Shown: positions 7,989-40,752 of the stretch, piece by piece
Position numbering within the stretch: position 1 is the stretch's first letter
How the letters are laid out: each line of letters starts with the position of its first letter
Source: an uncultured Methanosarcinales archaeon
Lineage (GTDB): Archaea; Nanobdellota; Nanobdellia; Woesearchaeales; CAZPJY01
DNA: 64,000 bases
Direction of reading: 5' to 3'
Assembly: GCA_964587045.1 (NCBI GenBank)
Contig: CAZPJY010000004.1
Coordinates: 699 to 64,698, forward strand
Notes under the pieces: model-generated
The model's input: the letters and a program-made list of their open reading frames with translations, nothing else
Told to the model about the DNA's origin: nothing
Databases searched by the model: none
Position numbers and translations under genes: made by a program

Positions 7989-8032
7989 TTTCAACATAAT
8001 AATTTTAAACATTCTTGTAATACATCCTGGAG

Positions 8033-8472: not shown

Positions 8473-8503
8473 GCTTTGCACAAATATTCGAAAATTAATA
8501 TAC

Positions 8504-9466: not shown

Positions 9467-9544
9467 TTAATTTATAATGTGTTTATATTATAAAAATTTT
9501 ACTTAAGAATAATAAAATAATGAAGAAAGTATTAATTATATGTT

Positions 9545-12397: not shown

Positions 12398-12403
12398 AAC
12401 CTA

Positions 12404-16467: not shown

Positions 16468-16552
16468 GAAAACACCCCGTCTGGCTGTCGGCGTCGCGCG
16501 TATTTAAACCTTCCGCAAAAGCTTAATAAATAGTGAGGATACCGGAAGGGGC
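16468..16552. promoter_or_regulatory. Divergent promoter region with BRE/TATA-like elements (cgcgtatttaaacc and ttaataaata)
   Basis: An 85-bp intergenic region between the divergently transcribed herA-cluster operon and the MCM-like gene, with two TATA-like boxes in opposite orientations. Confidence 0.4.
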
Positions 16553-17743: not shown

Positions 17744-17771
17744 TAAATAGTACTTTTATTCTGTGAGCCTT

Positions 17772-18095
17772 ATGCATGAGCTGACCATATCCCAAGGCAT
17801 AGTCAACGAGGCTAAGAAGCACGGCAACGTCGTATCACTAACAATAGAAGTGGGAGAGCTTGCCGACATCACTGCTGATGAGATCAGATCCTCACTGAGC
17901 AGGCTGGTGGATTGGGACGTTCAAATCAAGAAAAATCCGGGGAAAGTCGCCTGCTCATGCGGGTACACAGGAAAGCCGAAAATCGTGGAGCGCGGCCACG
18001 GCTACGTGATTTTCGAGTGCCCGAAATGCGGCAAGACCCCTGCAGTGATAGAGGGCAACCAGATAATCCTAGTGGAGCTGGACGTCAAGGAGTGA
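17772..18095 (+). CDS. hypA: Hydrogenase nickel-insertion protein HypA
   Basis: MHELTISQGIV N-terminus plus a C-terminal CxxC...CPKCG zinc motif (CSCGY...FECPKCG). A TATA-like ttaataaata lies upstream. Confidence 0.75.
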   Translation: MHELTISQGIVNEAKKHGNVVSLTIEVGELADITADEIRSSLSRLVDWDVQIKKNPGKVACSCGYTGKPKIVERGHGYVIFECPKCGKTPAVIEGNQIILVELDVKE

Positions 18096-19043: not shown

Positions 19044-19118
19044 GCGAAGTGAAAAAGCACGGACGTTTTTAATTCTTTTGCCGCAAAGCTTTTATTCACG
19101 CCGGCCATCCGGGTTAGC

Positions 19119-19499
19119 ATGCTCAAGGTGCTCGCTTTCGGAAACACCCTTCACCAGGAGGACAAGGTTGCGATAGACATCGCCAGGGAGCTGACCATCC
19201 CGGGCGTCGTGTTTTCCGAGTGCCACTCCCTCGACCAGGCACTTCAGGCTGCGAGGGGTGACACCATAATACTAGACGTAGCCAGGGGGATAGACAGAGT
19301 TATGCTTATAGATGACCTGGACAGGATAAAAGCTCGGCACCTCTACAGCCTCCACGACTTCGATCTTGGCTACTTCCTCAAGCTGATGCAGAGCATGGGA
19401 TCTTTGGACAGCGTGAGGATTCTCGCGCTGCCTTACGGACGCGCGTCCCACGAGGTCATCGACGAGGTTGCTCAGGTTCTGCGCTCCCTGGTCGAGTAG
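19119..19499 (+). CDS. Hydrogenase maturation endopeptidase (HycI/HybD family)
   Basis: MLKVLAFGNTLHQEDKVAIDIAREL matches the hydrogenase maturation protease N-terminal signature (GNxLxxDDGxG). About 126 aa. Confidence 0.6.
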   Translation: MLKVLAFGNTLHQEDKVAIDIARELTIPGVVFSECHSLDQALQAARGDTIILDVARGIDRVMLIDDLDRIKARHLYSLHDFDLGYFLKLMQSMGSLDSVRILALPYGRASHEVIDEVAQVLRSLVE

Positions 19500-19536
19500 A
19501 AAATTTTATATAGGCAGCGACCATTGGGTTCAGTGG

Positions 19537-20484
19537 ATGGGGAAGGTTATTCCGAAAGCTGATTTCAACAGGTGGCTTCGCAAGCTTTCTAGGAAATACG
19601 AACTGATCGGGCCTGTCAAGTCAGACCTGGTTAGATACTCGAATTTTGAGAGGCTCGAGGACCTGGAGCTGAGCGAGCTGCCCTACTACTCCTTCAAGCG
19701 GTACTTCTTCCCGCCCAAAGAGGAGCTCTTCTCATTTTCGAAAGACAGGGTGAAGCTTCCAAAGGTCAAGGCGCAAAGGAGGATCATCATAGGCGCTCCC
19801 CTAGCTGACATCAACGCCTTGAGGGTGATGGACAAGATATTCCTCGGCGACTACAAGGACGAAGGGTACGCCGAAAGGAGGAAGAACACGCTGCTGGTGG
19901 GATACGCCGACTTCCAGCCTGACGAGTACTGCTTCTCCAGCTCGTTCGACCAGGAGCCCTGCTACGACCTGATGCTCCACGAAAAAGGTGACAGCTTCTA
20001 CGTCGAGGTCGGCAGCGAAGCGGGACGAAAGCTAGTCCGAGGATTCAAGGAAGGCCAAGCCCCGAAGAAGAAGAAAATGGTCTTCCAAAAGAAGCTCGAG
20101 GTAAAGGACATCAAAGCCCACTACGACAGCCCCAAATGGGACAAGGAGGCAGAAAAATGCCTCGGCTGCGCCGGCTGCACCATCATTTGCCCAACCTGCG
20201 CGTGCTTCAACGTCTTCGACGACGCCAACTTCGACTTCATATCCGGAACTCGGTTCAAGGAGTGGGAGACGTGTGACGCCAAGAACTTCACGACGGTCGC
20301 GGGCAACTTCGCATTCAGGGATGACAGGTCGTCGAGGATGAAGCACAGGATATACCACAAGATGGTCTATTATCATGACTCCTTCGGAGGCTACATGTGC
20401 GTCGGCTGCGGCAGGTGCCTGCGCGTATGCCCTGTGGGCATAGACTTCGTCAAGGTATCTAACTCATTCAAGAGGAAAAAATGA
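19537..20484 (+). CDS. hydB: Sulfhydrogenase (group 3b [NiFe] hydrogenase) beta subunit, 4Fe-4S protein
   Basis: CLGCAGCTIICPTCACFNV and CVGCGRCLRVCPVG cluster motifs, collinear with Pyrococcus HydB. The start is set at the ATG at 19537, about 25 nt downstream of a ttttatata TATA box. The listed ORF begins at 19468. Confidence 0.75.
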   Translation: MGKVIPKADFNRWLRKLSRKYELIGPVKSDLVRYSNFERLEDLELSELPYYSFKRYFFPPKEELFSFSKDRVKLPKVKAQRRIIIGAPLADINALRVMDKIFLGDYKDEGYAERRKNTLLVGYADFQPDEYCFSSSFDQEPCYDLMLHEKGDSFYVEVGSEAGRKLVRGFKEGQAPKKKKMVFQKKLEVKDIKAHYDSPKWDKEAEKCLGCAGCTIICPTCACFNVFDDANFDFISGTRFKEWETCDAKNFTTVAGNFAFRDDRSSRMKHRIYHKMVYYHDSFGGYMCVGCGRCLRVCPVGIDFVKVSNSFKRKK

Positions 20485-21272
20485 GCGGGAAGGAATACGA
20501 ACCAAGACAGGTAGAGATCCTCAAGGTCGTCGACGAGACGCCTGATACCAAGACATTCAGGCTTAAGACGAGGATCAATCTGCTGCCCGGCCAGTTCGTC
20601 GAGGCCAGCGTGCTCGGCATCGGAGAGGCGCCGATATCCAACTGCTCTTACAACGGAGAATTCCTCGAGCTCATGATACGCGATGTCGGGAATGTCACGC
20701 ACGCGATCCACCAGCTCAAGGCAGGAGACAAGCTGTGGATACGAGGCCCGTACGGGCACGGCTACCCGATGGAGGAGATGAAGCACAAGAACATCCTGGT
20801 CGTGGCTGGCGGCACAGGCGCTGCCCCTCCCCGCTCAGTGCTGCAGTATGTTGAGCATCACAGGAGAGACTACGGCGACGTGAGGGCGATCATAGGATTC
20901 CGGAGCCCAAAAGACCTCATATTCAAGTACGATTTCGAGAGGTTCTCGCGTCTGTTCGACTTCACAGTGACCGTCGACAAGGGAGACGACACCTGGAATG
21001 GAAAGGTCGGGCTGGTGACCCAAATACTCGAAGAGAAGAAGGTGCCTGCCCAGAACACTGCCGTGGTGACGTGCGGACCGCCGATAATGATCAAATTCGT
21101 CATACAATCGCTGAAGAAGCTCGGTTTCTACGACAGCCAGATCTACGTGAGCTACGAGAGGCACATGCGCTGCGGGCTTGGGCACTGCGGCCACTGCATC
21201 TTCAGCGACAAGTACATATGCAAGGACGGGCCGGTGTTCCGGTACGACCAGGTCAAGGAGTTGCATGACTGA
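20481..21272 (+). CDS. hydG: Sulfhydrogenase gamma subunit (FAD/NAD(P)-binding, 2Fe-2S)
   Basis: A ferredoxin-NADP reductase-like fold with GGTGAAP and a C-terminal CGLGHCGHC cluster motif. Confidence 0.75.
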   Translation: MSGKEYEPRQVEILKVVDETPDTKTFRLKTRINLLPGQFVEASVLGIGEAPISNCSYNGEFLELMIRDVGNVTHAIHQLKAGDKLWIRGPYGHGYPMEEMKHKNILVVAGGTGAAPPRSVLQYVEHHRRDYGDVRAIIGFRSPKDLIFKYDFERFSRLFDFTVTVDKGDDTWNGKVGLVTQILEEKKVPAQNTAVVTCGPPIMIKFVIQSLKKLGFYDSQIYVSYERHMRCGLGHCGHCIFSDKYICKDGPVFRYDQVKELHD

Positions 21273-22066
21273 TGAAGCCTAAAGTGGGAATATTCGGTGT
21301 GACCTCATGCATGGGGTGCATGCTCACCGTGCTTTTCGACGAGCACCTGCTCAAGATAGTCGAGCTGATAGACCTCAGGGCTTGGCACCTGGCGAAGGAG
21401 AAGAACGATCCGGGCCCATTCGACATCGTGATATGCGAAGGGACCATTGTCAACAAGGAGGACCTGGAATACGTAAAGAAGCTGAGGGAGAAGGCCGGGT
21501 TCCTCATCTCGCTCGGAGCGTGCGCTGTCCATGGCAACATGCCTGCCATGAAGAACTTGATGAGCCGCTACGAGGTCGAGCACTCAGTATATGACAGGAA
21601 GATCGACTCACATCCCATCAATCCGGCGCCGCTCTCCAAGCATGTCGATGTCGATTACGAGATTCCCGGCTGCCCTCCTGCCAAGGACGAGATAAGGAGC
21701 GTACTAAAGGACCTGCTCCTGGGCAGGAAGCCCCACAGGATCGAGCGGCCCGTGTGCTTCGAGTGCCGCTTAAGGGAGAACAGGTGCCTGCTCAACGACG
21801 GAATCCCTTGCATGGGACCACTGACCCAGGCCGGATGCCATGCCCTCTGCCCATCGGTGAACCACCCCTGCACAGGATGCAGGGGGCCAATCGGAGACTC
21901 AAACTACGCCTCGGAATTCTCCAAGCTACTGGAGTTAGGCTACGACAAGGATTTCATCATGAAGAAGATGAGCAAGTACGCGGCGCCTGACGTCAAGGAG
22001 AAGCTGACGAAAGTCAGGATGGGCGAGTCGGAGCGCGTGAGACGAACTGTGAGGAAGCTCAGATGA
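21272..22066 (+). CDS. hydD: [NiFe] hydrogenase small (delta) subunit
   Basis: N-terminus GIFGVTSCMGCM...; cysteine ligands GCPP, CFEC and CTGCRG. The start overlaps the hydG stop (TGATG). Confidence 0.8.
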   Translation: MKPKVGIFGVTSCMGCMLTVLFDEHLLKIVELIDLRAWHLAKEKNDPGPFDIVICEGTIVNKEDLEYVKKLREKAGFLISLGACAVHGNMPAMKNLMSRYEVEHSVYDRKIDSHPINPAPLSKHVDVDYEIPGCPPAKDEIRSVLKDLLLGRKPHRIERPVCFECRLRENRCLLNDGIPCMGPLTQAGCHALCPSVNHPCTGCRGPIGDSNYASEFSKLLELGYDKDFIMKKMSKYAAPDVKEKLTKVRMGESERVRRTVRKLR

Positions 22067-23346
22067 CAGTAATAAAGCTCAACCACATCTGCAAGGTCGA
22101 GGGGCACGCCAAGTTACATCTGAATATCGAGAGGGGCAAGGTAAAGACGTGCGAGCTCGCCGTGACCGAAGGCGCGCGCTTCTTCGAAGGTCTGCTCAAG
22201 GGCAAGCACTACTCCGACGCAAAGGAGATCACGTCACGCATATGCGGCATCTGCAGCTGCGGGCACGTGGTAGCGAGCCTGAAGGCGACGGAAGCGGCGT
22301 TCGGCCTGGAGGTTAGCAAGCAGACCGACGTGCTGCGCGAGCTCCTCACCATGGGAGAACGCATCAGGAGCCACGCGACCCACATGTACCTGCTCGCGCT
22401 TCCCGACTACCTGGGCTACGACTCCGCCATCGCGATGGCTGCAAAGTACAAGACCGAGGTCAGCAGGGCCCTGAAGATTGTGGGCGTTGGCAACAAGATG
22501 GTCGAGACCGTCGGCGGGAGGGAGATGCATCCTGTGAGCCCAGTCGTCGGAGGCTTCACCCATGTGATCAACAAGAAGGAGCAGGGCTTCCTCATAGACC
22601 AGCTGCACTCCATAAGGAAGGACTGTGAGAAGTCAGCAGAGCTCTTCTTGTCTTTGGACTACCCCAGGTTCGAGCATGATATCGAGAATATCTCGCTCCT
22701 GCAGCAGGAGAAGTTCCCGCTGATCCATGGGATCATAATATCCAACAGGGGGGTCTCGTTCGAGCCGCAGGACTACAAAAAGTTCATCGCCGAGCACATC
22801 AACCACTACTCGAACGCCAAGTTCGCAACCCGGGACGGCAAGGGATACCGTACCAACGCCCTTGCGAGGGTAAATCTCAACTATGAGCTGCTGGGCAACA
22901 AAGAGAAGGAGATGGTCTCCAAATCAAAGTACTCGTTCCCTTCGGTCAACCCCTTCCTGAACAACGCGGCGCAGGGCCTCGAGCTCATGCACTGGACAGA
23001 CCGGGCCATCGAGATGCTCGAGGGCTTCGAGTTCGGTCCAGAAGAGGTCCTCAAGCCTTCAGTAGGTGAGGGGAGGGGTGTAGGTGTTGTGGAGGTTCCA
23101 CGTGGCATCCTGATCCACGACTACACCCATGACAAGAAGGGATTCATCAAGCGCGCAAACATCATCACGCCCACCGTCCAGATGCTGCAGGGCATGCAGG
23201 ACGGCATCACCCTGTACGTCGAGCATCTGCTGAGAGAGAAGAGCATGACCAACGAGAAGCTCGTGCTCGAGATAGAGAAGCTCATACGCGCGCACGACCC
23301 GTGCTTTTCGTGCTCATGCCACTTCTTAGAGGTCGACTGGAGCTAG
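22063..23346 (+). CDS. hydA: [NiFe] hydrogenase large (alpha) subunit
   Basis: N-terminal RICGICSCGH (RxCGxCxxxH) and C-terminal DPCFSCSCH (DPCxxCxxH) nickel-binding motifs. Confidence 0.85.
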   Translation: MTVIKLNHICKVEGHAKLHLNIERGKVKTCELAVTEGARFFEGLLKGKHYSDAKEITSRICGICSCGHVVASLKATEAAFGLEVSKQTDVLRELLTMGERIRSHATHMYLLALPDYLGYDSAIAMAAKYKTEVSRALKIVGVGNKMVETVGGREMHPVSPVVGGFTHVINKKEQGFLIDQLHSIRKDCEKSAELFLSLDYPRFEHDIENISLLQQEKFPLIHGIIISNRGVSFEPQDYKKFIAEHINHYSNAKFATRDGKGYRTNALARVNLNYELLGNKEKEMVSKSKYSFPSVNPFLNNAAQGLELMHWTDRAIEMLEGFEFGPEEVLKPSVGEGRGVGVVEVPRGILIHDYTHDKKGFIKRANIITPTVQMLQGMQDGITLYVEHLLREKSMTNEKLVLEIEKLIRAHDPCFSCSCHFLEVDWS

Positions 23347-23429
23347 GTTATCGGTGAATTGGCCGATTTCACTGGAACTGCGCTAGCCAGTGCCTGTATC
23401 TAACAAAACAGCCACACCCCAGGTCGAGT

Positions 23430-23951
23430 CTATGTGTAGCCCTTGGTCCAGAACTCGTCCGACATCTCGTTGGTGAGCTTCCGCGCCTCTTCTGGGTCCA
23501 CCCTTTTCCGGATGATCTCTAAAACCTTGCGGTCCCTAAGCGTCTTTTCCGGGCTCCTGTGCAGGCCGGTGAGCTGCGCCATCTTGGACACAAGCAGGGA
23601 CTCTGGGCTCAGCACCTTGAGTTTGTACCCTTCGAACTCTACCTCCACAGCTCTGGGGACCAGCACCCTGGACGCGTTGGTGTTGCAGCAGATGTCGAAA
23701 GTGGTGCCGTTCTTCTCGACAGTCTTCATTGCCCATCGGTCGCCATCGTTCTCTTCCCTGGTAAGTTTCCATCCCTTGGAAACGAAGTCCTCAGCAATGG
23801 GTGCGATGTCAGCAATGGACTTAGTAAATATGTCTATGTCCTCGGAAGCTTCGACGCCTGTCTGCAGAAAACCGGCGAAACCGGCGAATATGACATAGCC
23901 GTCAATGCGGGCGAGGTAGCCCATCAATTCTCTCATCTCTTTTGTTATCAT
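23430..23951 (-). CDS. Nucleotidyltransferase-domain protein
   Basis: GFAGFLQTGVEASEDIDIF matches the minimal NTase G[SF]x...[DE]xD motif. 173 aa with a C-terminal extension. Confidence 0.45.
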   Translation of the reverse strand: MITKEMRELMGYLARIDGYVIFAGFAGFLQTGVEASEDIDIFTKSIADIAPIAEDFVSKGWKLTREENDGDRWAMKTVEKNGTTFDICCNTNASRVLVPRAVEVEFEGYKLKVLSPESLLVSKMAQLTGLHRSPEKTLRDRKVLEIIRKRVDPEEARKLTNEMSDEFWTKGYT

Positions 23952-24025
23952 ATGCAGTGATTAAAGCACCGACTATATAAACCTGAGCATAAAAAATAAA
24001 AACAGCCTGTGCATCCCCAGGTGAT

Positions 24026-29074: not shown

Positions 29075-29470
29075 ATGACAATGACTGAAGAGAAGAAAAA
29101 CAATCTTGCTAACTACGTCATGACATCGTTTTTCAGCGCACTCGTTGGAGCAGCGCTGGCCAGCGGGTACTTTTACTTGAACCAGAGAAGCGGCTCAGAC
29201 CTGGAGATCACCATCGAAAATCCGATAGTGCAGATAAAGGACCAGGGCAAGGTAATCAAAGGAAAAGCCCCCCTGAGCGAGAGCAGAAACATCCTCGATT
29301 TATTCACCGGGCACAGGGCTGACAAGTGGATCAAGTTCGAGGACGAAGGTTACATAATCTACTGGGATTACAACAACGACGGGAAATACGACAGGTACAA
29401 GTCCGTCTACAAGCAGGGGTCCATCGAAGAGAAATTCAAGGAAATCCAGACTGACAGCACCGGACGCTAG
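29075..29470 (+). CDS. Small membrane-anchored protein, paralog 3 of 3
   Basis: TM helix followed by KGKAPLSESR...NNDGKYDRY. The start is set at the ATG at 29075, just after the paralog 2 stop. Confidence 0.4.
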   Translation: MTMTEEKKNNLANYVMTSFFSALVGAALASGYFYLNQRSGSDLEITIENPIVQIKDQGKVIKGKAPLSESRNILDLFTGHRADKWIKFEDEGYIIYWDYNNDGKYDRYKSVYKQGSIEEKFKEIQTDSTGR

Positions 29471-30639
29471 CGGACCAGCGTGACAGTCTCCTTGGCTATC
29501 TCAAGCTCCTCGTTCGTCGGGATGACGAACACCTTAACTTTCGAGCCCTTGGCAGATATGACTCTGGCGTTGCGCCTGTTGGCATTGGCGTCTAACCTCA
29601 CTCCCATATGCTTAAACCTTGACAGGACCTTAGCTCTGGTACCCCACTCATTCTCGCCTATGCCTCCAGTGAATACGATGCAGTCCAGGCCTTCAAGAAC
29701 GGTCGCATAGGCACCGATGAAGAACGCTATCCTGTAGGCGAGCATGTCAAGAGCGAGCTCTGCCCTATCATTTCCCGATTTGGCTGCCTGGACCAGCTCC
29801 CGGACATCCGAGCTGATGCCAGAGATGCCCTTGAGGCCTGATTTCTTGTTGAGATAATTGGACAGCTCGTCCGGTTTGAAGTGTTTCTTCTTAATGAGGT
29901 ATATGGGAATCTCAGGGTCCAGCTCTCCACTTCGAGTGCCCATGATCAGCCCGTCCAGCGGTGTGAATCCCATGGTCGTGTCAACGCTCTTCCCGTCCTT
30001 TATCGCCGTGATTGACGAGCCGTTCCCGAGATGGCAGGTGATCATCTCGTGGCTCTTGCGCTTGAGCATCTTGGCCGCCTCGCGGCTGACGTATTTGTGG
30101 GAGGTACCATGGAAGCCGTATTTCCTTATCTTGTATTTCTGGTAGAGCTCGAGGGGTATGCCATAAAGGTAGGCCTCCTCCGGGATGGTCTGGTGGAATG
30201 CTGTGTCGAAGACGGCCACCTGCGGCACCTTGGGCATCACCTTCATGCACGCTTTGATACCTGCAAGGTTTGGGGGGTTGTGGAGGGGTGCAAGCTCGAA
30301 GAGCTCCTTGATGCGCTTGATGACCTCACCGTCGATTAGCGTCGGTCCATGATAGTATTCCCCGCCGTGCACGACTCGGTGGCCAACAGCCTTGATGTCA
30401 TCGATGTCCTCAAGCACCTTTGATCTTATCAGAAATTCCAGGGCGAAATGAACCGCCTCTGCGTGGTCCTTTATCAGCTCCTTCTCCTCTACCTTCTTGT
30501 TGCCGTACGATAACTTCACCGTGCACCGGTCCAGTCCGATGCCATCGACATGCCCCTTGAAGAGGAGAGCCCCTTCCGGCATCTCCAGAAGCTGGTATTT
30601 CAAGGAGCTTGATCCTGAGTTCAGGACGAGGACCTTCAC
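29467..30639 (-). CDS. ackA: Acetate kinase
   Basis: (M)KVLVLNSGSSSLKYQL N-terminus and other acetokinase motifs. The probable GTG start at 30637-30639 overlaps the pta TGA (GTGA). The listed ORF extends to an ATG at 30705. Confidence 0.8.
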   Translation of the reverse strand: MKVLVLNSGSSSLKYQLLEMPEGALLFKGHVDGIGLDRCTVKLSYGNKKVEEKELIKDHAEAVHFALEFLIRSKVLEDIDDIKAVGHRVVHGGEYYHGPTLIDGEVIKRIKELFELAPLHNPPNLAGIKACMKVMPKVPQVAVFDTAFHQTIPEEAYLYGIPLELYQKYKIRKYGFHGTSHKYVSREAAKMLKRKSHEMITCHLGNGSSITAIKDGKSVDTTMGFTPLDGLIMGTRSGELDPEIPIYLIKKKHFKPDELSNYLNKKSGLKGISGISSDVRELVQAAKSGNDRAELALDMLAYRIAFFIGAYATVLEGLDCIVFTGGIGENEWGTRAKVLSRFKHMGVRLDANANRRNARVISAKGSKVKVFVIPTNEELEIAKETVTLVR

Positions 30640-31616
30640 CTTCCCACCGCCTGAGCCTGAATCACTGTTATGGCCGTTATCCCGTAAACGTCGTCGACTG
30701 AGCACCCTCGGGAGAGGTCGTTGACAGGCCTTCTGATGCCCTGGATTATGGGACCAAGGGAGGTGACCTGGCCGATTCTTTGTGTTATCTTGTAGGCAAT
30801 GTTGCCAGCGTCCAGGTTGGGGAATATGAAGACGTTTGCCTTCCCCCCAATTGGGGAATCAGGGCATTTCTTCTGGGCCACTTTCTCGACGTATGCTGCA
30901 TCGAACTGCAGCTCCCCGTCAAGCAGTAGGTCCGGGGCGCGCTCCTTTGCAATCCTGGTCGCCTCGACGACCTTGTCGACCATGGGGTGCTTGGCGCTTC
31001 CGTGCGTCGAGAAGGAAAGCATCGCAACCCTGGGTTCGATGCCGAAAAACTTGGCCGATTCAGCGGTTGCGAGAGCGATGTCGGCGAGCTCCTCAGGATT
31101 GGGATCAATGACAAACCCGCAATCTGCATAGAACATCAGTCCCTGATCGGATATCTCGAAGAAGAAGCTCGATGCAAGCTTCCTCCCCTCAGCGGTCTTG
31201 AGTATCTGAAGCGCAGGCCTAAGCGTGTGGGCTGTGGGATGGGAAGCACCGGATATCAAGCCGTCAGCCTCACCCAGATGGACCATCATGGTCCCCCAAT
31301 AGATTGGCTCTGCAACCATCTTCCTTGCGTCGTCGATTAGTGCTAGCTTGCCCTTGCGGAGCTCCATGAACTCCTTGGCAAAGCTCTCCACGTCGCCTTT
31401 GGCTGGATCCACTATCTGGATGTCACCGAGGTCGAGATTGAGCGAGGCTGCCTTGGCCCTCGTAGTCTCTTCAGGACCCACGAGTATTGGGACAGCTATG
31501 CCATCATTCTTCACGCGCAGGGCTGCCTTGAGAATGCGTTCGTCCTCAGTTTCTGGGAATACTATGCGCTTTGGCTCCTTGCGAGCTTTCTCGATTAGAT
31601 TGGACAGGAAATCCAT
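30636..31616 (-). CDS. pta: Phosphotransacetylase (short, about 326 aa form)
   Basis: N-terminus MDFLSNLIEKARKEPKRIVFPETEDERILKAA and conserved Pta core. Translationally coupled to ackA. Confidence 0.8.
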   Translation of the reverse strand: MDFLSNLIEKARKEPKRIVFPETEDERILKAALRVKNDGIAVPILVGPEETTRAKAASLNLDLGDIQIVDPAKGDVESFAKEFMELRKGKLALIDDARKMVAEPIYWGTMMVHLGEADGLISGASHPTAHTLRPALQILKTAEGRKLASSFFFEISDQGLMFYADCGFVIDPNPEELADIALATAESAKFFGIEPRVAMLSFSTHGSAKHPMVDKVVEATRIAKERAPDLLLDGELQFDAAYVEKVAQKKCPDSPIGGKANVFIFPNLDAGNIAYKITQRIGQVTSLGPIIQGIRRPVNDLSRGCSVDDVYGITAITVIQAQAVGR

Positions 31617-31635: not shown

Positions 31636-32112
31636 TCAAAGGATCTTTGACTCCCTCAGCTTGTTGAGGTACTCCTCAACCGAAATCTTCATCGAGATGA
31701 GCTTCCAGTCAAGGTGCTTGATGAGAGAGATGATCCCTTCGAGTATGTCTGTCTGCGTCACCAGTCCGACTAGCTTGCCCTTGTAGTCAGTTATCGGGAA
31801 TCTCCTGCACTTCTTCTGCCGCATGAGCTCGGCTGTTGGCACGAACTCCGCTTCCGGAGGCAAAGACAGCACGGGTGCTGTCATGACATCCCCGATAGGG
31901 GTTTTCTTTGGGTCCCTTCCAGCGACGATGACCTTCTTAATCATGTCTCTCTCAGTTAGTATGCCTATCGGCTTCTTTTTGTCGACGATAACGGCACAGC
32001 TGATCTTCTTGGTCGCCATCGCTCTCGCGACTGTGATGACTTTCTCATTCTTGGACACGGCATACACTGTCTTGGACATGATGCTCCCGACGTCTCTTTG
32101 GTCTCCTTTCAT
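31636..32112 (-). CDS. CBS-pair domain protein
   Basis: Two CBS repeats (IMSKTVYAVSKNEKVITVARAM...; VMTAPVLSLPPEAEFVPTAELM...). The start is set at the internal ATG at 32110-32112. Confidence 0.6.
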   Translation of the reverse strand: MKGDQRDVGSIMSKTVYAVSKNEKVITVARAMATKKISCAVIVDKKKPIGILTERDMIKKVIVAGRDPKKTPIGDVMTAPVLSLPPEAEFVPTAELMRQKKCRRFPITDYKGKLVGLVTQTDILEGIISLIKHLDWKLISMKISVEEYLNKLRESKIL

Positions 32113-32327
32113 TTTCGAATCCCAAAATCCACCTTTTCTTCTTCTTGAAATCGTTGTGCGAACATCTGGGGAATGTTCTCCTCGAAGCCGCACTTCGTGC
32201 AGTAGAGCCTGCCAATCCTCTGGTTATAGCGCAGGTCGAGCGAATTGCACTGGGGGCACCGCTTCAACGGCATGAAGTCGCCGAACTGCTCAGTGAATCG
32301 CGCCTTCCACTTATCATACGAGTCCAT
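32109..32327 (-). CDS. Small zinc-ribbon protein
   Basis: CPQCN...CTKCG four-cysteine ribbon. The start is set at the internal ATG (MDSYDKW...). Overlaps the CBS gene start. Confidence 0.35.
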   Translation of the reverse strand: MDSYDKWKARFTEQFGDFMPLKRCPQCNSLDLRYNQRIGRLYCTKCGFEENIPQMFAQRFQEEEKVDFGIRK

Positions 32328-32494
32328 CTTAATAATTTTCCCCCATAGGCATCTATACACCCGCGCTTTATAAACTTGTGTAATTATTGCGGGCTCACAA
32401 CATGATGCCATATCAGTATGCGGGTCCCTCGGTTGTTATTCCAGAATAATAACGAATCTTTTTATAGGCCTACCACAAATAATGTGCTAAAGAG

Positions 32495-34918
32495 GTGGAC
32501 TTATTGGAAGATAAGGATAATACATTCATTCTCTGGTTTGATCAACTCAATATCCAAGATATCAAGTATGTTGGAGGGAAGAACGCGTCCCTTGGGGAGA
32601 TGTACAGGAACCTGTCCTCACTCGGTGTGAATGTCCCCAATGGATTCGCGATCACAGCCAGGGCCTACAGGTATTTCCTGGAGCACAACAAGATACCCGA
32701 CAAGATCCACGAGATACTGGCAGACCTTGACACCGGCAACATGAACAACCTGTCTGAGAAAGGTTACAAGATAAGGCATATGATCATCAACGCAGAATTC
32801 CCCGAAGACCTAAAGGAGGCGATAATCGGAGCGTACAAGGCGTTATGCAACTCCTATCAGACCGAACTCGTGGACGTTGCGGTCAGGAGCTCAGCGACAG
32901 CGGAGGATCTCCCCGACGCCTCTTTTGCTGGGCAGCAGGAGACCTATCTCAACATAAGGGGCTCGTACAACATCGTCCATTCAGTAAAGAAATGCTTCGC
33001 ATCCCTATTCACAAATAGGGCCATATCCTACAGGGTGGACAAGAAATTCGACCACTTCTCAGTCGCGCTGTCTGTCGGGATACAGAAGATGGTGAGATCA
33101 GACAAGGCCTGCTCAGGAGTGATGTTCTCCCTCGACACAGAATCTGGGTTCAGGGATGTGGTCCTCATCAATGGCATCTACGGCCTCGGCGAGAACATCG
33201 TCCAGGGAGCGGTTAACCCTGACGAGTTCCTGGTCTTCAAGCCTACGTTGAAGAACGGATTCAGGCCGATAATCGAGAAGAAGCTGGGCGGAAAGCGCAT
33301 CAAGATGGTCTACAGCCAGGAAGGTGTGGAGTCAGTAAAAAACGTGCCGGTCGACATCAATGACAGAAAGAGTTACGTGCTGAACGATGACGAAATCCTC
33401 ACGCTCGCCAGGTGGGCGATGGTTATCGAAGAACATTACACCAAGGTCAGGGGGAAGGATACCCCCATGGATATGGAGTGGGCGAAGGATGGTGAGCTCA
33501 ACAAGCTGTTCATAGTGCAGGCCAGACCAGAGACTGTCCACTCTCAGAGGGACGCGACCAAGCTCACTGAATATGTCCTCAAGGGCAAGGGGACAGTTCT
33601 GGTCAGAGGCACATCTGTCGGGAACAAGATCGGAAAAGGCAAGGTCGCCATAATCAAGGATGTGCACAATATTAACCAATTCAAGAAGGGAGAGGTCCTC
33701 GTGACAGAGATGACCGACCCGGACTGGGAACCTATTATGAAGATTGCCGGCGCGATAGTGACCAACCGCGGAGGGAGGACCAGCCATGCCGCCATCATCT
33801 CCCGCGAGCTTGGGATACCCTGCGTTGTGGGCACGCAGACAGGCACCGAGATTCTCAAGAGCGGCCAGGAGGTCACTGTCGACTGCTCGAAGGGCGAGAA
33901 CGGTCATGTATATGAAGGGCTCATCGATTTCGAGTTGCTCCAGCAGGACCTCTCAGAAATACCCAAACCCAAGACAGCGATCATGATGAATGTGGGCAAC
34001 CCAGAGCAGGCCTTCCACCATAGCTTCATACCCAACTCTGGGGTGGGACTGGCAAGGGAAGAGTTTGTGATCAATTCGTACATCAAAATCCACCCCTTGG
34101 CTCTTATCAAGTTCGACGAGCTCACCAATGAGGAGGTAAGGTCGCAGATTCTTGAGCTGACTTCGGGCTATGAGGACAAGAAGCAGTACTATGTCGACAA
34201 GCTCTCCTATGGTATCAGCATCATCGCATCCGCCTTCTATCCAAAGGACGTAATCGTTCGCCTGAGCGATTTCAAGAGCAACGAGTACGCGAATCTGATA
34301 GGTGGGAAGCTCTTCGAGCCGACTGAGGACAATCCGATGATCGGGTGGAGGGGCGCATCCAGGTACTATGCTGAAAAGTACAAGGAGGCCTTCGCACTGG
34401 AGTGCAAGGCGCTCCAGAAGGTGAGGGATGAGATGGGCCTCACCAATGTCAAGATCATGGTGCCTTTCTGCCGCACGGTGGAGGAGGGCAGGAAGGTCCT
34501 GCACGAAATGGAGAAGAACGGACTCAAGCAGGGAGAGAATAACCTTCAGGTCTATGTCATGTGCGAGATCCCCTCCAATGTCATTCTCGCCGACCAGTTC
34601 TGCGATATCTTTGACGGATTCTCAATCGGCACAAACGACCTCACCCAGCTCACCCTCGGACTGGATAGGGACTCTGAGCTTGTGTCCCACATCTACGATG
34701 AGAGGAACGACGCTGTCAAACGTCTGGTGTCGATGGTCATCAAGACAGCCCGTGAGAGGCACCGTAAGATTGGCATATGCGGCCAGGCACCCAGTGATTT
34801 CCCCGAGTTCGCTGAGTTCCTTGTAGAGCAGGGAATAGATTCGATTAGCCTGAATCCTGATACTGTGATAAGGACCACGATGCGGATCGCCGAGAAAGAG
34901 CAGCAGTTGGGCCGTTAG
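32495..34918 (+). CDS. ppsA: Phosphoenolpyruvate synthase (pyruvate, water dikinase)
   Basis: N-terminal ILWFDQLNIQDIKYVGGKNASLGEM, a central phosphohistidine domain (GGRTSHAAIISRELGIPCVVG) and a C-terminal PEP-utilising TIM-barrel domain. 807 aa. GTG start. Confidence 0.85.
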   Translation: MDLLEDKDNTFILWFDQLNIQDIKYVGGKNASLGEMYRNLSSLGVNVPNGFAITARAYRYFLEHNKIPDKIHEILADLDTGNMNNLSEKGYKIRHMIINAEFPEDLKEAIIGAYKALCNSYQTELVDVAVRSSATAEDLPDASFAGQQETYLNIRGSYNIVHSVKKCFASLFTNRAISYRVDKKFDHFSVALSVGIQKMVRSDKACSGVMFSLDTESGFRDVVLINGIYGLGENIVQGAVNPDEFLVFKPTLKNGFRPIIEKKLGGKRIKMVYSQEGVESVKNVPVDINDRKSYVLNDDEILTLARWAMVIEEHYTKVRGKDTPMDMEWAKDGELNKLFIVQARPETVHSQRDATKLTEYVLKGKGTVLVRGTSVGNKIGKGKVAIIKDVHNINQFKKGEVLVTEMTDPDWEPIMKIAGAIVTNRGGRTSHAAIISRELGIPCVVGTQTGTEILKSGQEVTVDCSKGENGHVYEGLIDFELLQQDLSEIPKPKTAIMMNVGNPEQAFHHSFIPNSGVGLAREEFVINSYIKIHPLALIKFDELTNEEVRSQILELTSGYEDKKQYYVDKLSYGISIIASAFYPKDVIVRLSDFKSNEYANLIGGKLFEPTEDNPMIGWRGASRYYAEKYKEAFALECKALQKVRDEMGLTNVKIMVPFCRTVEEGRKVLHEMEKNGLKQGENNLQVYVMCEIPSNVILADQFCDIFDGFSIGTNDLTQLTLGLDRDSELVSHIYDERNDAVKRLVSMVIKTARERHRKIGICGQAPSDFPEFAEFLVEQGIDSISLNPDTVIRTTMRIAEKEQQLGR

Positions 34919-35890: not shown

Positions 35891-36874
35891 ATGTATGATA
35901 TTATCACTATGGGTTCTGCTACCGTAGACGTCTTTGCCAAGACCAAATCGGAGCTCATCACCATTGAGACAGGCACCGAGAAAGAACAGCTGATTGCCTA
36001 CCCCAGCGGCCACAAGATCCTCATCACAGACCTGCAGTTCATGGTGGGAGGAGGCGGAACCAACACCGCGGTGGCTTTCTCAAGGCTTGGCCTCAATACA
36101 GGGTACATCGGCAGGCTGGGCAAGGACACGAACGCAAACCTAATCCTCGACCTACTCGAAAAGGAGAAGATAAATTTCCTCGGATCCCAAGACAGCAAAT
36201 CCAAGACAGGATACTCGATAATACTGGACAGCATAGAAAGGGACAGGACCATACTCACATTCAAGGGGGCAAACAACACCCTGACAGACTTCGACACAAA
36301 AAAGATCAAGACCAAGTGGTGCTATTTCTCCTCCATGGTCGGCGACTCCTTCGAGACCCAGAAGAAGATTGCAAAATACGCTTACAAGAACAAGATAAAA
36401 ATCGTTTACAACCCGAGCAACTATCAGGCCGAAAAAGGGCCTGAATTCCTCAAGGAATTGCTAACAAGGGCCACAATCCTGATTCTAAATCTTCAGGAGG
36501 CACAGTACCTGGTTGGCAAGAGGAACGATGACAACTTGCTGAGAGCCCTGCACAGTTTAGGACCGAAAGTTGTCGTCGTGACCAATGGGAACAAAGGATC
36601 CATCGCAAGTGATGGCACAACGCATTACATGATTACACCTCACCAACTTGAGATAACAGAAACCACAGGTGCTGGAGACGCGTTCGCATCAGGATTCGTG
36701 GCAGGTTATATAATGAACAGCGACATGACAACCTCATTACAGATGGGGCTGGCCAACGCCGAATCAGTGGTCACCAACTACGGCGCAAAAAACATACTGC
36801 TGACCAAGAGCCAGATTGAGCGGCGCATCAAGGACGAACCCGGCAGCGTCGAAACAAGGAAGTTAGAGGAATGA
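35891..36874 (+). CDS. PfkB-family carbohydrate/nucleoside kinase (ribokinase-like)
   Basis: Di-Gly motif MVGGGGTNTAVAF and C-terminal TGAGDAFASGFVAGY signature. Overlaps the downstream aldolase start (ATGA). Confidence 0.75.
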   Translation: MYDIITMGSATVDVFAKTKSELITIETGTEKEQLIAYPSGHKILITDLQFMVGGGGTNTAVAFSRLGLNTGYIGRLGKDTNANLILDLLEKEKINFLGSQDSKSKTGYSIILDSIERDRTILTFKGANNTLTDFDTKKIKTKWCYFSSMVGDSFETQKKIAKYAYKNKIKIVYNPSNYQAEKGPEFLKELLTRATILILNLQEAQYLVGKRNDDNLLRALHSLGPKVVVVTNGNKGSIASDGTTHYMITPHQLEITETTGAGDAFASGFVAGYIMNSDMTTSLQMGLANAESVVTNYGAKNILLTKSQIERRIKDEPGSVETRKLEE

Positions 36875-37797
36875 AAATGGTCTTAGTAAACAGCAAAGAC
36901 ATTCTCAACAACGCAAGAGAGAACCACTATGCCGTCGCGGCTTTCAACGTGAACAACATGGAAGCTGTCCAGGCTGTCGTCCAGGCGGCCGTTGAGGAGA
37001 AGGCTCCTGTAATCATCCAATGCACCGAAGGGGCTATCAAGTACGCTGGCCTTGACATGCTCAGGGCCATGGTAAACGCAGCGGCAGGAAAACCCGAACA
37101 GCGCTTCGTCCTGCACCTAGATCATGGCAAAGATATGGAAATTATCAAATCCTGCATAGACGGCGGATTCACTTCGGTGATGATTGACGCCTCATCAGAG
37201 GATTTTGAGGCTAATGTCGCCAGAACCAAGGAAGTCGTCGACCTAGCACATCCCAAGGGCCTAACAGTTGAAGCAGAGCTCGGACAGCTGAAAGGTGTAG
37301 AGGACAACGTCGCTTCGGAAAACCAGGTATTCACGGATCCCGAAAAGGCCAAAGAGTTCGTGGAAAGGACTGGCTGCGACTCCCTCGCAATAGCCATAGG
37401 GACCAGCCACGGAGCGCACAAGTTCAAGGGCGAGCCCCATCTGGATATGGAGCGGCTATCCAGAATTAGGGAGGTGGTGAAAATCCCTCTCGTATTGCAC
37501 GGCGCATCACGTGTACCTCCCGAGACCGTCTCGGAAGCGAACCATTATGGCGGCCAGATCGAAAACGCACATGGAGTGCCTGACGAAATGCTGGCTGAGG
37601 CGGTTCGCAGGGGGATTTGCAAGGTGAACACGGACACCGACTTGAGGCTTTCCCTCACTGCAGGCCTCCGGAAGGCTCTCGCCGAGAACCCTTCAAACTT
37701 CGACCCGCGCAAGGAGCTCGGACCAGCCAGGGAGGCGATGAAGGAAGAAGCGAAGCATCGCATAAGAGTAGTCGGAAGCTCTGGCAGATTTGCATAA
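36871..37797 (+). CDS. fba: Class II (metal-dependent) fructose/tagatose-bisphosphate aldolase
   Basis: AVAAFNVNNME...HLDHG...EAELG...HG motifs of class II FBA. Confidence 0.8.
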   Translation: MKMVLVNSKDILNNARENHYAVAAFNVNNMEAVQAVVQAAVEEKAPVIIQCTEGAIKYAGLDMLRAMVNAAAGKPEQRFVLHLDHGKDMEIIKSCIDGGFTSVMIDASSEDFEANVARTKEVVDLAHPKGLTVEAELGQLKGVEDNVASENQVFTDPEKAKEFVERTGCDSLAIAIGTSHGAHKFKGEPHLDMERLSRIREVVKIPLVLHGASRVPPETVSEANHYGGQIENAHGVPDEMLAEAVRRGICKVNTDTDLRLSLTAGLRKALAENPSNFDPRKELGPAREAMKEEAKHRIRVVGSSGRFA

Positions 37798-37835
37798 TCT
37801 TTATATACTCTTTTCTTATCTTTCAGGGAGAAAAT

Positions 37836-39410
37836 ATGAAACATATAATTTGGCCTTCGGAACTGGCAGACCAGGATGTAGGTTACAAGGCTAAGGGCCT
37901 GGCTGAGCTGCAGCAGCAGCGAATACAGGTAGCTCCTTTCTTCGTCGTGACCGGAAGCGTTTTCGAGGAAATGGCAGGAGAGGTGATGCCGCGAATCAAG
38001 AACCTGCTCACCACAATCAGCGACCAAGAGTCCTTGGAAGCGAACGCGACCATCATACAGAGGCTGGTGGCCGGTCTCGAGCTGCCAGCTGACCTCAAGG
38101 AAGAGCTAATTGAGGCCTATGAGGTCCTGGAGATAGACTTCGAGAACGTCCATATATCTGATATGGTGAAGGAACTCGAGGATCCCATCGTGGCGGTGAG
38201 GGTCAGCACCTCGGACTCAGGACTCTCATCAATGCTCTCCAAGCGCATCCAGGGCCAGCTGGTAATCAAAGGGACCGATGCCCTCCGTAAAGCCCTGCAC
38301 GGGGTGTGGGTTGCCCAGTTCTTCCCCGAAATCATCAATTACAAGAGGTCCTCCAACCTGGATCCGCTCGAGCCGATATCGATAATGGTCCAGAAGGTCA
38401 TCAAGTCCAATAGGTCTTGCAGGACCGAAACCATGTCGCAGGAGCAGATATTGGTCGAGGCCATGCCCGGATCCAGCTGGGGAGTCAAGGATGAGGAGAT
38501 CGGGAAGGACAGGTTCATAGTCGCCTCTAAGGGTCTTGAGCTCAAGGAGTCTACGCCAGGAAGGCATACTAAGAGGTACCATTTCGATCCTGGATCTCTC
38601 AGCTTCCTAAAGCAGGAAGGGATATCCCTCAAGACCATCAACGACAAGGAAGCAGTTGAGGCAGCCCGCGTCACCAAGAACGCCTCTGCAATCCTCAACT
38701 CCCCGGTCAGCCTGACGATTGACATCCAGGAGGACCTGATGTTTGTCACAGACTGCACCCCGCTGGAATCCTACCAGATGCCCCTGAAGGCTTTTACTGA
38801 GGAGAGGGCAGAGGACCTGATCCATCTCGAAGAGGAACCGAAGGAGGAGGAGAAGGATCTCAAACAGGGGGATGCTGAAGAATTCGCCCCAATCGAGCAT
38901 GAGGAAGATGCTGAAAAATTTGTCCCTATCGGACATGAGGAAGATGCCGCTGATGAAGCACCGGCCCCCGATGAGGACTTCTTAGAGGTGTCGACCGACT
39001 CTGATGAGGAGCCTGAGGAGTTCATAGAGATTCAAGGAACCAAGCCGGAAGAGACCCCTAAAGACGATGAGTACGTAGAACTCCAGGAGCCCCCTGATGA
39101 AGAACAGGCAGAAAATGATGAAAGCTCAATCATAACGGATTTCATGGGAAACCAGAAGGCCATGCAAGAGCTCTCCAAGGCAATACGCACCTTTGAGCAT
39201 TCGATCGTGTCGGCACTCAAAGAAACAAGCGGAAGCGAAGAGAACCAATTGGAAGACCTTCTGGATGAGGTAGATATTGAACCTGAGCTCAAGACGCGAG
39301 CCAGGGCTGTCAAACGGCTCGCTGACCGCTACAGGGGTGGTGAGACCCTGACTCTTCCTGAAATGGAGTTCGCCCTGAAGGCCGTTAGGGAGATTCTCGA
39401 CGGGCTTTGA
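37836..39410 (+). CDS. Paralog of the PEP-synthase/PPDK N-terminal nucleotide-binding domain, fused to a long acidic, partly repetitive C-terminal tail
   Basis: GYKAKGLAELQQQRIQVAPFFVVTG...VAVRVSTSDSGLSS aligns with ppsA GGKNASLGEM...NGFAITA...VAVRSSATAEDLP but with substitutions in the conserved block. The tail is D/E-rich, with EDAEEFAPIEHE / EDAEKFVPIGHE repeats. The ATG at 37836 is preceded by gggag. Confidence 0.5.
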   Translation: MKHIIWPSELADQDVGYKAKGLAELQQQRIQVAPFFVVTGSVFEEMAGEVMPRIKNLLTTISDQESLEANATIIQRLVAGLELPADLKEELIEAYEVLEIDFENVHISDMVKELEDPIVAVRVSTSDSGLSSMLSKRIQGQLVIKGTDALRKALHGVWVAQFFPEIINYKRSSNLDPLEPISIMVQKVIKSNRSCRTETMSQEQILVEAMPGSSWGVKDEEIGKDRFIVASKGLELKESTPGRHTKRYHFDPGSLSFLKQEGISLKTINDKEAVEAARVTKNASAILNSPVSLTIDIQEDLMFVTDCTPLESYQMPLKAFTEERAEDLIHLEEEPKEEEKDLKQGDAEEFAPIEHEEDAEKFVPIGHEEDAADEAPAPDEDFLEVSTDSDEEPEEFIEIQGTKPEETPKDDEYVELQEPPDEEQAENDESSIITDFMGNQKAMQELSKAIRTFEHSIVSALKETSGSEENQLEDLLDEVDIEPELKTRARAVKRLADRYRGGETLTLPEMEFALKAVREILDGL

Positions 39411-40338
39411 TTACCACTATTCTCTTGGTAAGGTTTTTGTGTAGGTAATGCTCGTAGCTTGCGACCTCTTCCCAGCCATGCAGGAATTCCTTGTGGTCCA
39501 CAAAACTTGGGAACATCACGACTGAGGTACCCCTGACATGTTCGATGCTCTTCCTCATGAACTTGTGGTACAGCTCTGTCAGTCCTGAGGAGAGCCTGCT
39601 GGAAAGTCCGTACGGGAGGTCTGTGACCATGTGGTCGAACTTCCCTTTAATTCCCAGCGCGTCACCCTGGAGAATGTCCGCTTCGATATTGAAGTATTCA
39701 AGGTTTAGGGCACACTTGTGGACCATCAGCGCGTCCATGTCTATCCCGGTTGTGTTGATCCCCATCATGGCAGCCTCGATGATCACCCCACCTGTGCCGC
39801 AGAAAGGGTCGATTAGCGTCTGGCCGGGCCTGATACTGGTGAGGTTTACGCAGGCGCGCGCCAGGCGCGGATCTAAGGAGACCGGAGAGAATCCTGGCCT
39901 TAGGTGGGCTTTCCTTCCCATGAACTCGTTTGGATTCTCATATTCGAGCAGGCCTACAATCATCCTCTCCCCCGCCTTGGCCATGATTATTGGAAACTTA
40001 GGGCTTTTCAGGTCGACCTTCGCCTCCGGTGCCGAAGAGTGTACCAGTGAAGCAGCATCCTTCTCTGAGAGGGGTGACCTGCCCATTTTCCTTATTGAGA
40101 AGCTCCCCCTGAGCAGGGAGGCCCAGTCGTAGTTGCTGATCCCTGCCTCGAGCCGGTCAGGAGCGCAGCTTATCAGGACTCTGACCGCCAGTTTTACGTA
40201 CGCGAATCTGGGTATGGTCCCAGGGCTGACATCAGCCAGGCTCCAATCCCCATGATGCGCCACTTTGCTGGCAAGCGCTGATAGCTCATCCCTTGAGAGC
40301 TGGATATTCTGCTTGGAGAGCAGGAATGCATATACCAT
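39385..40338 (-). CDS. Trm11/Trm-G10-like tRNA (guanine-N2)-methyltransferase (THUMP-associated MTase family)
   Basis: SAM motif I LIDPFCGTGGVIIEAA and motif IV DLPYG. Confidence 0.6.
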   Translation of the reverse strand: MVYAFLLSKQNIQLSRDELSALASKVAHHGDWSLADVSPGTIPRFAYVKLAVRVLISCAPDRLEAGISNYDWASLLRGSFSIRKMGRSPLSEKDAASLVHSSAPEAKVDLKSPKFPIIMAKAGERMIVGLLEYENPNEFMGRKAHLRPGFSPVSLDPRLARACVNLTSIRPGQTLIDPFCGTGGVIIEAAMMGINTTGIDMDALMVHKCALNLEYFNIEADILQGDALGIKGKFDHMVTDLPYGLSSRLSSGLTELYHKFMRKSIEHVRGTSVVMFPSFVDHKEFLHGWEEVASYEHYLHKNLTKRIVVIKARRESP

Positions 40339-40425: not shown

Positions 40426-40752
40426 ATGCCCAGGGGAAGACCAATCAAATCTGCAATACGGCAGAACATTATCAACATTCTAGCCTATCTGGGAGAGGGC
40501 TACGGCTATGACATCTACAAGGTATACATACAGGTGTATCCCCGTGCATCCATGAGGGTAATCTACTACCACCTCAAGAAAGGGGTGGTTCTCGGAGAGT
40601 TCAGGGTAAAAGGCATCAAGGTCGAGGAGGGAGACTACAGCTGGGGGCCAAAGGCAGAGAAGGTCTACTATGGGCTGGGCCCAAAGGCACTCCCGCAAAA
40701 AGAGGCAAGGATCGAGAGAGCACTAAAGAATGGCAAGGCAAGAGCTGATTGA
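40426..40752 (+). CDS. PadR-like winged-helix transcriptional regulator
   Basis: IINILAYLGEGYGYDIYKVY...RVIYYHLKKGVVLGEF resembles the PadR wHTH. Confidence 0.4.
   Translation: MPRGRPIKSAIRQNIINILAYLGEGYGYDIYKVYIQVYPRASMRVIYYHLKKGVVLGEFRVKGIKVEEGDYSWGPKAEKVYYGLGPKALPQKEARIERALKNGKARAD

Follow-up and report, generated by a model that had tools for sequence, protein, structure and literature searches.

An eroded PEP-synthase-type ATP-grasp domain, an acidic linker and a helical domain in a DPANN protein family with a conserved genomic position

What is the ATP-grasp domain of a phosphoenolpyruvate (PEP) synthase doing in a protein that lacks the other domains of that enzyme? The question is raised by a gene in a 64,000-nucleotide stretch of DNA (assembly GCA_964587045.1, contig CAZPJY010000004.1, positions 699 to 64,698), deposited as an uncultured Methanosarcinales archaeon and placed by GTDB in the Woesearchaeales; the whole stretch is called the window here. 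The gene encodes an uninterrupted protein of 524 amino acids, which had been taken from the sequence for a degenerate paralog of the neighboring ppsA with a poly-acidic tail. Judged by its sequence relatives, it is instead the local ortholog of an undescribed three-part family of DPANN archaea (Nanoarchaeota/Woesearchaeota), in which a long acidic linker joins the ATP-grasp domain to a C-terminal helical domain. We tentatively read the protein as a noncatalytic module for binding or regulation, perhaps linked to upper glycolysis, and give this reading a probability of about 45%. The parts of the gene, and the enzyme used for comparison, are as follows.

37836 to 39410, plus strand: gene of the three-part protein, 524 codons plus stop (open reading frame [ORF] list and translation)
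37836 to 38765, plus strand: degenerate PPDK_N/PEP-synthase-type ATP-grasp domain, residues 1 to 310 (Pfam, AlphaFold2 [AF2], Foldseek)
38766 to 39134, plus strand: polyacidic, intrinsically disordered linker, residues 311 to 433 (composition; AF2 predicted local distance difference test [pLDDT])
38871 to 38947, plus strand: 36-nucleotide tandem duplication (Tandem Repeats Finder [TRF], 2.1 copies, 85% matches, score 112)
32495 to 34918, plus strand: bona fide three-domain PEP synthase (PpsA), for comparison (TIGR01418, 1,210 bits against a cutoff of 739.75)

The PPDK_N profile (PF01326), proposed at the outset as a check, matched residues 14 to 292 (E = 3.7e-22; 79.5 bits against a gathering cutoff of 27), and Pfam gave nothing significant beyond it. 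The predicted kinship with the N-domain of the window PpsA was recovered by BLASTP over residues 4 to 229 at 22% identity (E = 6e-12). PpsA has VAVRSSATAEDLP where the protein has VAVRVSTSDSGLS, and the substitution of RSSATAEDLP by RVSTSDSGLS had been quoted correctly. An AF2 model built from an alignment of 34 family members gave residues 1 to 310 a confident two-lobed ATP-grasp fold, with pLDDT mostly above 90. In Foldseek searches with the model of this domain, the top match was rifampin phosphotransferase's (RPH's) ATP-grasp domain (5hv1/5hv6, E = 1e-16), with template modeling scores of 0.80 to 0.83 when normalized to the isolated ATP-grasp domain; HpeI was the second-best fold match (9goj, E = 1e-15), Neisseria PpsA followed (2ols, E = 3e-15), and the PPDK folds 1kbl and 1dik were matched as well. 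HpeI was also the best sequence match in the PDB (E = 8e-5). Descent of the domain from a PEP-synthase/PPDK ATP-grasp domain, as originally predicted, is borne out by these matches.

The remainder of a PEP synthase is missing. PpsA and PPDK, whose N-domains are homologous to that of the protein, continue into a swivel domain with the phospho-histidine and a TIM barrel for PEP/pyruvate, whereas in the protein Pfam detected neither PEP-utilizers (the swivel, PF00391) nor PEP-utilizers_C (the barrel, PF02896), and the motifs of the domain that it does have are eroded. The swivel and PEP-binding parts of PpsA gave no tblastn match in any frame of positions 38522 to 39410, so that the claimed absence of the phospho-histidine and PEP-binding domains was upheld by both methods. 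The sole swivel domain in the window is that of the full-length PpsA. Against the PEP-synthase model TIGR01418 the protein scored 52.9 bits, where the cutoff is 739.75.

Erosion of the active site was followed in an alignment of 43 family and 44 canonical N-domains at eight positions: the Lys of GGK, the Arg of RSS, the Thr of the SFAGQxxT loop, the Glu of GLGE, and the paired residues of DxE and QxR. The protein keeps two of these eight phosphotransfer residues, K18 (codon 37887 to 37889) and R122 (codon 38199 to 38201); at the remaining six sites it has G, W, S, T, D, and T, and the SFAGQxxT loop, GLGE, DxE, and QxR are lost. For several of the eight positions, a role has been documented in RPH and PPDK. 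In RPH-Lm (5hv1/5hv6), the best structural match, K22A abolishes activity, and phosphotransfer to the substrate is lost in R117A and in T136V (PMC4844700). The equivalents of K22 and R117 are kept in the protein and those of T136 and E297 are lost, as are the rifampin-binding and C-terminal swivel histidine domains of RPH. Four further residues, S124, Q186, G212, and D225, are invariant in the family and conserved in canonical enzymes as well, and they appear to have a structural or hinge role.

Among relatives that retain the linker and the C-terminal domain (relatives carry P numbers and genomic loci L numbers below), the count of catalytic residues runs from eight of eight to none. P0013 and P0087 keep all eight, P0003, the sister of our protein, keeps three, and a Woesearchaeota subgroup keeps none or one. 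The PEP-synthase model score drops in step with this erosion, from about 330 to 350 bits in P0013 and P0087 to 179 in P0003, 114 in P0002, 72 in P0069, and 53 in our protein, and the linker and C-terminal domain persist throughout. This persistence across the gradient suggests that in many lineages the family's shared function does without catalysis. The original suggestion of a pseudoenzyme or regulatory protein is reasonable, with two of eight phosphotransfer residues left and the phospho-histidine and PEP-binding domains absent.

The C-terminal part was described less accurately at first. A hyperacidic stretch is present, but it covers about 120 residues (311 to 435; 40% Asp/Glu, net charge −42) rather than about 170, and it is a linker leading into a conserved helical domain that had been missed, not a tail. 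Residues 316 to 437 have pLDDT below 50 in the AF2 model, i.e., they are disordered. The near-tandem repeats reported in this stretch are real, as TRF found a 36-nucleotide period, but the unit is 12 residues and not 13; the duplication encodes DAEEFAPIEHEE and DAEKFVPIGHEE at residues 346 to 369 and contains the motif PI[GE]HE[ED]. A motif scan of 150 relatives found PI[GE]HE[ED] twice in the protein, once in P0003, and in 0 of 148 other sequences. The linkers of relatives are about 100 to 400 residues long and contain short motifs such as EDDxAFLEEIE and DDFIFS, where our protein has DEDFLEV and DESSIIT.

Acidic tails also occur on other DPANN PpsA-like proteins, and acidic decoration of PpsA-type proteins seems to be common in the DPANN lineages examined. 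Several of the PpsA-like top matches, many of them full length, carry an acidic C-terminal extension with a short hydrophobic tip (D-[ILV]-F, LGIF, or NLF), namely P0052, P0065, P0073, P0084, P0103, P0110, and P0124 (and P0049, P0089, and P0121). Such tips resemble the docking tips of bacterial SSB or ribosomal stalk proteins.

Beyond the linker, residues 434 to 524 form a confidently modeled helical domain (pLDDT of roughly 90 and above, starting near residue 440), and these last approximately 90 residues have an ordinary composition, with only 20% Asp/Glu. A hidden Markov model (HMM) was built from the C termini of 25 relatives with our protein excluded. Residues 439 to 519 matched it collinearly over positions 12 to 101 of 105 at 13.3 to 14.3 bits, a score that is weak in absolute terms; none of 2,000 composition-matched shuffles reached it, the best giving 11.7 bits. 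The domain is predicted to be a helical bundle of about 90 residues with a HEPN-like topology. The Rx4-6H motif sought as a mark of the HEPN superfamily (e.g., AF0298, 2hsb; TT1696, 1ufb; sacsin HEPN, 3o10) is absent from our protein and is not conserved across a 36-member alignment. Foldseek gave no significant match for the domain (best HEPN match, E = 2.6), Pfam HEPN models matched weakly in only two or three of 36 members (E of about 0.005 to 0.02), and HEPN was absent from a profile search of PDB sequences. The resemblance may be a convergence of small helical bundles.

Does this architecture belong to a family, or is it a local accident? The identical 524-residue protein occurs once in a collection of 15 billion proteins, on an NCBI contig of 65,563 bp; a TTG start would lengthen the ORF, but it is the ATG at 37836 that follows the GGGAG and TATA-like signals given below, and the 524-residue product is the version recorded publicly. 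Word-indexed searches returned the protein itself only, whether the query was the full protein or its N-domain, and one with the C-domain alignment returned no match. Exact-sequence look-ups with the protein and with the neighboring class II aldolase gave no record. When the N-domain was compared exhaustively by HMMER with 1.84 billion representatives, 562 matches were obtained at E ≤ 1e-3, the best nonself ones at 29 to 30% identity, and the top matches share the whole architecture of ATP-grasp domain, acidic linker, and conserved C-domain of about 90 residues. Dozens of Nanoarchaeota/Woesearchaeota proteins with this three-part architecture are 25 to 30% identical to ours. Within the top 150 representatives, 38 were positive with the C-domain HMM, 35 more had an acidic tail and no swivel or TIM domains, and 45 were canonical multidomain enzymes. 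The family is without an NCBIfam model, Pfam recognizes only the N-domain, and the three-part architecture was not described in the literature that we found, which was incompletely available.

A neighbor-joining tree was calculated from the N-domain alone; it carries no support values and is indicative. The protein stood beside P0003 and then P0075, P0069, and P0031, inside a clade of 63 leaves that included 42 proteins with the C-domain, 20 with the tail only, and no canonical PpsA. Its nearest relatives by N-domain identity were DPANN proteins of the same architecture (27 to 30%), and the window PpsA ranked 139th of 140 at 19.7%. The claim that the gene is a degenerate paralog of the neighboring ppsA is contradicted by these values, since DPANN orthologs from the same genomic slot are nearer, and recent paralogy was rejected on the tree, the identity, and the rank.

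The same-slot orthologs were found by the search for relatives that the original prediction had called for. The window genes that bear on this comparison are the following.

35891 to 36874, plus strand: pfkB-family sugar kinase, which opens the same-strand cluster (Pfam PfkB, E = 5.9e-44)
36871 to 37797, plus strand: class II fructose-bisphosphate aldolase (FBA) (TIGR01859, 359.7 bits against a cutoff of 343)
37800 to 37830, plus strand: intergenic signals ahead of the ATG at 37836 (read from the sequence)
39385 to 40338, minus strand: convergent Trm11-like (TIGR01177/UPF0020) methyltransferase (Pfam and NCBIfam)
40426 to 40752, plus strand: small conserved ORF of 108 residues, orf108 (tblastn synteny)

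The FBA gene overlaps pfkB and ends 38 nucleotides before the start of our gene, which therefore lies directly after the two, as originally described. Within the 38-nucleotide spacer stand a TATA-like TTTATATA at 37800 to 37807 and a Shine-Dalgarno-like GGGAG at 37826 to 37830, 5′ of the ATG, which are candidate expression signals for the gene. On the other side, the 3′ ends of our gene and the Trm11-like gene overlap by 26 nucleotides (39385 to 39410), and orf108 had no Pfam, NCBIfam, or PDB match.

Genomic contexts of relatives were obtained from exact-protein look-ups and from one scan of GTDB species representatives; the loci are labeled Nanoarchaeota, Candidatus Woesearchaeota, or Nanobdellati archaeon, with two labeled "archaeon" and one "uncultured Methanosarcinales." Eight distinct syntenic loci were recovered (L004, which is identical to L005; L006 to L010; L012; and L013), and all show one gene order, given here with identities to the window genes by tblastn.

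Position 1: pfkB, 50 to 58% identity in the eight loci
Position 2: DhnA-type class I aldolase, of a different class from the class II FBA of the window
Position 3: the family gene, 25 to 29% identity to our protein
Position 4: convergent Trm11-like methyltransferase, 32 to 37% identity
Position 5: orf108, 43 to 63% identity
Position 6: M50 protease, 33 to 45% identity
Position 7: aIF5A, 60 to 64% identity

The window has the same order with three differences, namely, the class II FBA, an inserted ORF of 213 residues, and an inserted TrmJ that is also found in L016. Because the family gene is 25 to 29% identical where its neighbors are 32 to 64% identical, it evolves much faster than they do, and our gene is a fast-evolving ortholog of an old family. 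The shared architecture and genomic slot are the grounds for calling it such an ortholog rather than a recent ppsA paralog or a pseudogene. The aldolase-slot genes of the relatives match NF005556/class I aldolase family models, and the difference between the window and the eight loci is an in-place, nonorthologous replacement. Across the eight loci the class I aldolases (e.g., L004, 9156 to 9941) are 70 to 82% identical to one another.

A wider set of contexts gave a different constant. In 12 of 14 distinct contexts a convergent Trm11-like gene lies 3′ of the family gene, at times separated from it by one other gene; the window has it as well, and no neighbor of the family is more conserved. 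In the contexts of P0003, P0087, P0069, and P0016 it is the constant neighbor, and pfkB and the aldolase are absent. The 3′-end overlap of the two genes recurs across distant lineages (L004, 11759 to 11776, 18 nucleotides; L016, 3971 to 3984, 14 nucleotides; L001, 2194 to 2197, 4 nucleotides). In the P0031 lineage, the next gene downstream on the same strand is a bifunctional PGI/PMI gene. PpsA paralogs, full length or RPH-like, are located no more than 1 to 3 kb away in the window, L004, and L017 and are absent from the other loci. The example in L004 (13078 to 15060, minus strand; also in L005), 1.3 kb from the family gene, encodes a protein of 660 residues with an intact ATP-grasp domain, a helical middle, and a C-terminal swivel histidine motif (GGITCHAAIVARE), an RPH-like architecture without the TIM barrel.

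Taken together, these observations are best accommodated by a noncatalytic binding or regulatory module. Because the phospho-histidine carrier is absent and six of the eight phosphotransfer residues are lost, dikinase chemistry is most likely not performed by the protein. The eroded ATP-grasp domain, with K18, R122, and the invariant hinge residue Gln186 kept, may have retained the binding of a nucleotide, phosphorylated ligand, or protein partner; dimerization, docking, or partner binding would fall to the helical bundle; and the acidic linker would serve as a flexible polyanionic tether with short docking motifs. A role in sugar-phosphate metabolism (upper glycolysis/gluconeogenesis) is suggested because the gene ends a same-strand pfkB-aldolase cluster, and the link to upper glycolysis is drawn because the aldolase slot is kept despite the change of class and because of the PGI neighbor in the P0031 lineage. 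The anatomy of the domains, the residue losses, the family membership, and the synteny can be read directly from the data, and we infer from them the loss of catalysis, the ligand binding, the dimerization, and the metabolic target.

Several points weigh against this reading. The glycolytic association is shallow, with only three independent lineages (a closely related Woesearchaeota subgroup, the window, and P0031), and it is absent from four contexts (P0013, P0087, P0069, and P0016). The most conserved neighbor, a convergent tRNA methyltransferase, hints at some other role or at none, and DPANN genomes preserve the order of long gene blocks whose members are functionally unrelated. The gene may also have its own promoter, given the TATA-like box in the 38-nucleotide spacer. 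As to the loss of catalysis, K18 and R122 correspond to the most critical residues in RPH and are kept, so that residual nucleotide binding or some activity is conceivable; the Mg-ligand mutant E297A of RPH is still active (PMC4844700), and the lost acidic ligands are therefore no proof of inactivity.

The constancy of the Trm11-like neighbor raises a different possibility, in which the HEPN-like C-domain binds RNA or an RNA-modifying enzyme and the pairing of the two genes is functional. The pairing extends to lineages without pfkB or an aldolase, and the surrounding block is rich in genes for translation and RNA (TrmJ, aIF5A, eRF1, Nop, and fibrillarin). However, the two genes are convergent and hence not cotranscribed, a linker with a net charge of −42 would repel RNA, and the bundle has no conserved Rx4-6H motif, with HEPN matches confined to the few weak Pfam ones and no support from Foldseek or sequence profiles. 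We regard an RNA or tRNA role as unlikely.

It is also possible that the protein is the ATP-binding subunit of a split dikinase. Stand-alone PPDK_N ATP-grasp proteins are already known, and what appears to be new here is the three-part architecture. HpeHI, CreHI, and phenylphosphate synthase are two-component dikinases with such stand-alone components (PMC12167813), and HpeI, CreI, the beta subunit of phenylphosphate synthase, and the N-domain of our protein are all free-standing PPDK_N ATP-grasp units of about 310 to 340 residues with no swivel or substrate domain in cis. By analogy, our protein would pyrophosphorylate a histidine on a separate swivel-domain protein, possibly the neighboring PpsA or an RPH-like protein. 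The rank of HpeI among PDB sequence matches, the retention of K18 and R122, the complete catalytic sets of P0013 and P0087, and the nearby swivel-bearing PpsA-like or RPH-like genes in the window, L004, and L017 all speak for such an arrangement. However, HpeI keeps GGK, RSS..ED, SFAGQQET, and the downstream motifs, whereas our protein has lost six of the eight key residues, including the SFAGQxxT loop, GLGE, DxE, and QxR, and in many orthologs the Lys and Arg are gone as well. HpeI is encoded beside its partner HpeH; our gene has no adjacent partner (its neighbors being pfkB, the aldolase, and the methyltransferase), the window holds no swivel-only partner gene, and in most syntenic loci no gene with a swivel domain lies within 8 kb. 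The acidic linker of about 120 residues and the helical domain of about 90 residues have no counterpart in HpeI or in the other known two-component ATP-grasp subunits. A split dikinase is thus an improbable description of this protein.

A broader proposal, which we consider about as improbable, would take intact and eroded members jointly as an unrecognized regulatory system of dikinase origin that extends across DPANN. In the intact P0013 and P0087, the C-terminal bundle would swing in on the acidic tether in place of the classical swivel domain, and the ATP-grasp domain of the same protein would phosphorylate it or be gated by it. The eroded members would be nucleotide- or PEP-sensing pseudodikinases, which would control the switch between PFK/aldolase and PEP synthase under a minimal metabolism.

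Still more doubtful is the notion that the linker itself is the functional part and would sequester basic proteins, polyamines, or metal ions as an acidic chaperone, a nucleic-acid mimic, or a cation buffer, with the folded domains serving only as anchors. Its composition, charge, and disorder would suit such a role, as would the roughly 100- to 400-residue variation in length, the tandem duplication, and the acidic tails on other DPANN PpsA-like proteins. However, the conserved parts of the family are the two folded domains and not the linker sequence, and the recurring EDDxAFLEEIE and DDFIFS motifs suggest specific docking over bulk charge. Finally, a pseudogene left by decay or frameshift of a full-length ppsA paralog, a refutation foreseen by the original prediction and one that the low identity to PpsA, the eroded motifs, and the two missing domains might bring to mind, is hardly credible and was rejected, since the 524-codon ORF is intact with no swivel or TIM remnant in any frame, both folded domains are confidently modeled, the architecture and position are conserved across many DPANN lineages, and the N-domain is nearer to DPANN orthologs than to the window PpsA. 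The other refutation foreseen, intact ATP-site residues, is not what the alignment gave.

If the noncatalytic reading is correct, prokaryotes would provide, in this family, a case of an enzymatic ATP-grasp domain that has become noncatalytic and is joined to a long polyacidic disordered linker. A likeness can be drawn to the C domain of synapsin, an ATP-grasp fold that acts as a binding and scaffolding module rather than as an enzyme and is carried on long disordered regions; synapsin differs in being eukaryotic, in belonging to another ATP-grasp subfamily, in having basic, proline-rich disorder, and in showing no sequence relationship to our protein. Tiny DPANN genomes keep few needless genes, and a family that keeps its position and architecture while its catalytic residues erode therefore likely has an important nondikinase role. 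Should the protein regulate the adjacent upper-glycolysis genes, it would offer a handle on the control of carbon metabolism in these symbionts. There is also a practical consequence for annotation: a match to the N-domain alone risks the labels "PEP synthase" or "PEP-binding," which would inflate the gluconeogenic capacity inferred for DPANN archaea.

Some features elsewhere in the window deserve mention. Scans for tRNA genes and for Rfam families at the gathering threshold found none in the 64 kb, and PADLOC defense-system models gave nothing meaningful. Immediately upstream of ppsA, but on the other strand (31636 to 32411, minus strand), lie genes for a CBS-domain protein of 185 residues and a zinc-ribbon ORF of 100 residues, the latter with weak TFIIB-type matches; a CBS plus helix-turn-helix protein is also found near the family gene in L017 and L018. 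The window further contains a bacterial-type ackA and pta pair (29467 to 31616, minus strand) in an otherwise archaeal context (ackA, TIGR00016, 498.6 bits against a cutoff of 293.4; pta, TIGR00651, 393.8 bits against 311.2). An acetate kinase and phosphotransacetylase pair is uncommon in archaea. The listed ackA and pta ORFs overlap by 70 nucleotides, and the start of ackA is therefore probably further downstream. The G+C content is mostly 0.43 to 0.50 over positions 1 to 10000 (0.54 in one 2-kb bin) versus 0.55 to 0.59 over positions 12000 to 24000, a contrast that could reflect a composition island or simply different gene content.

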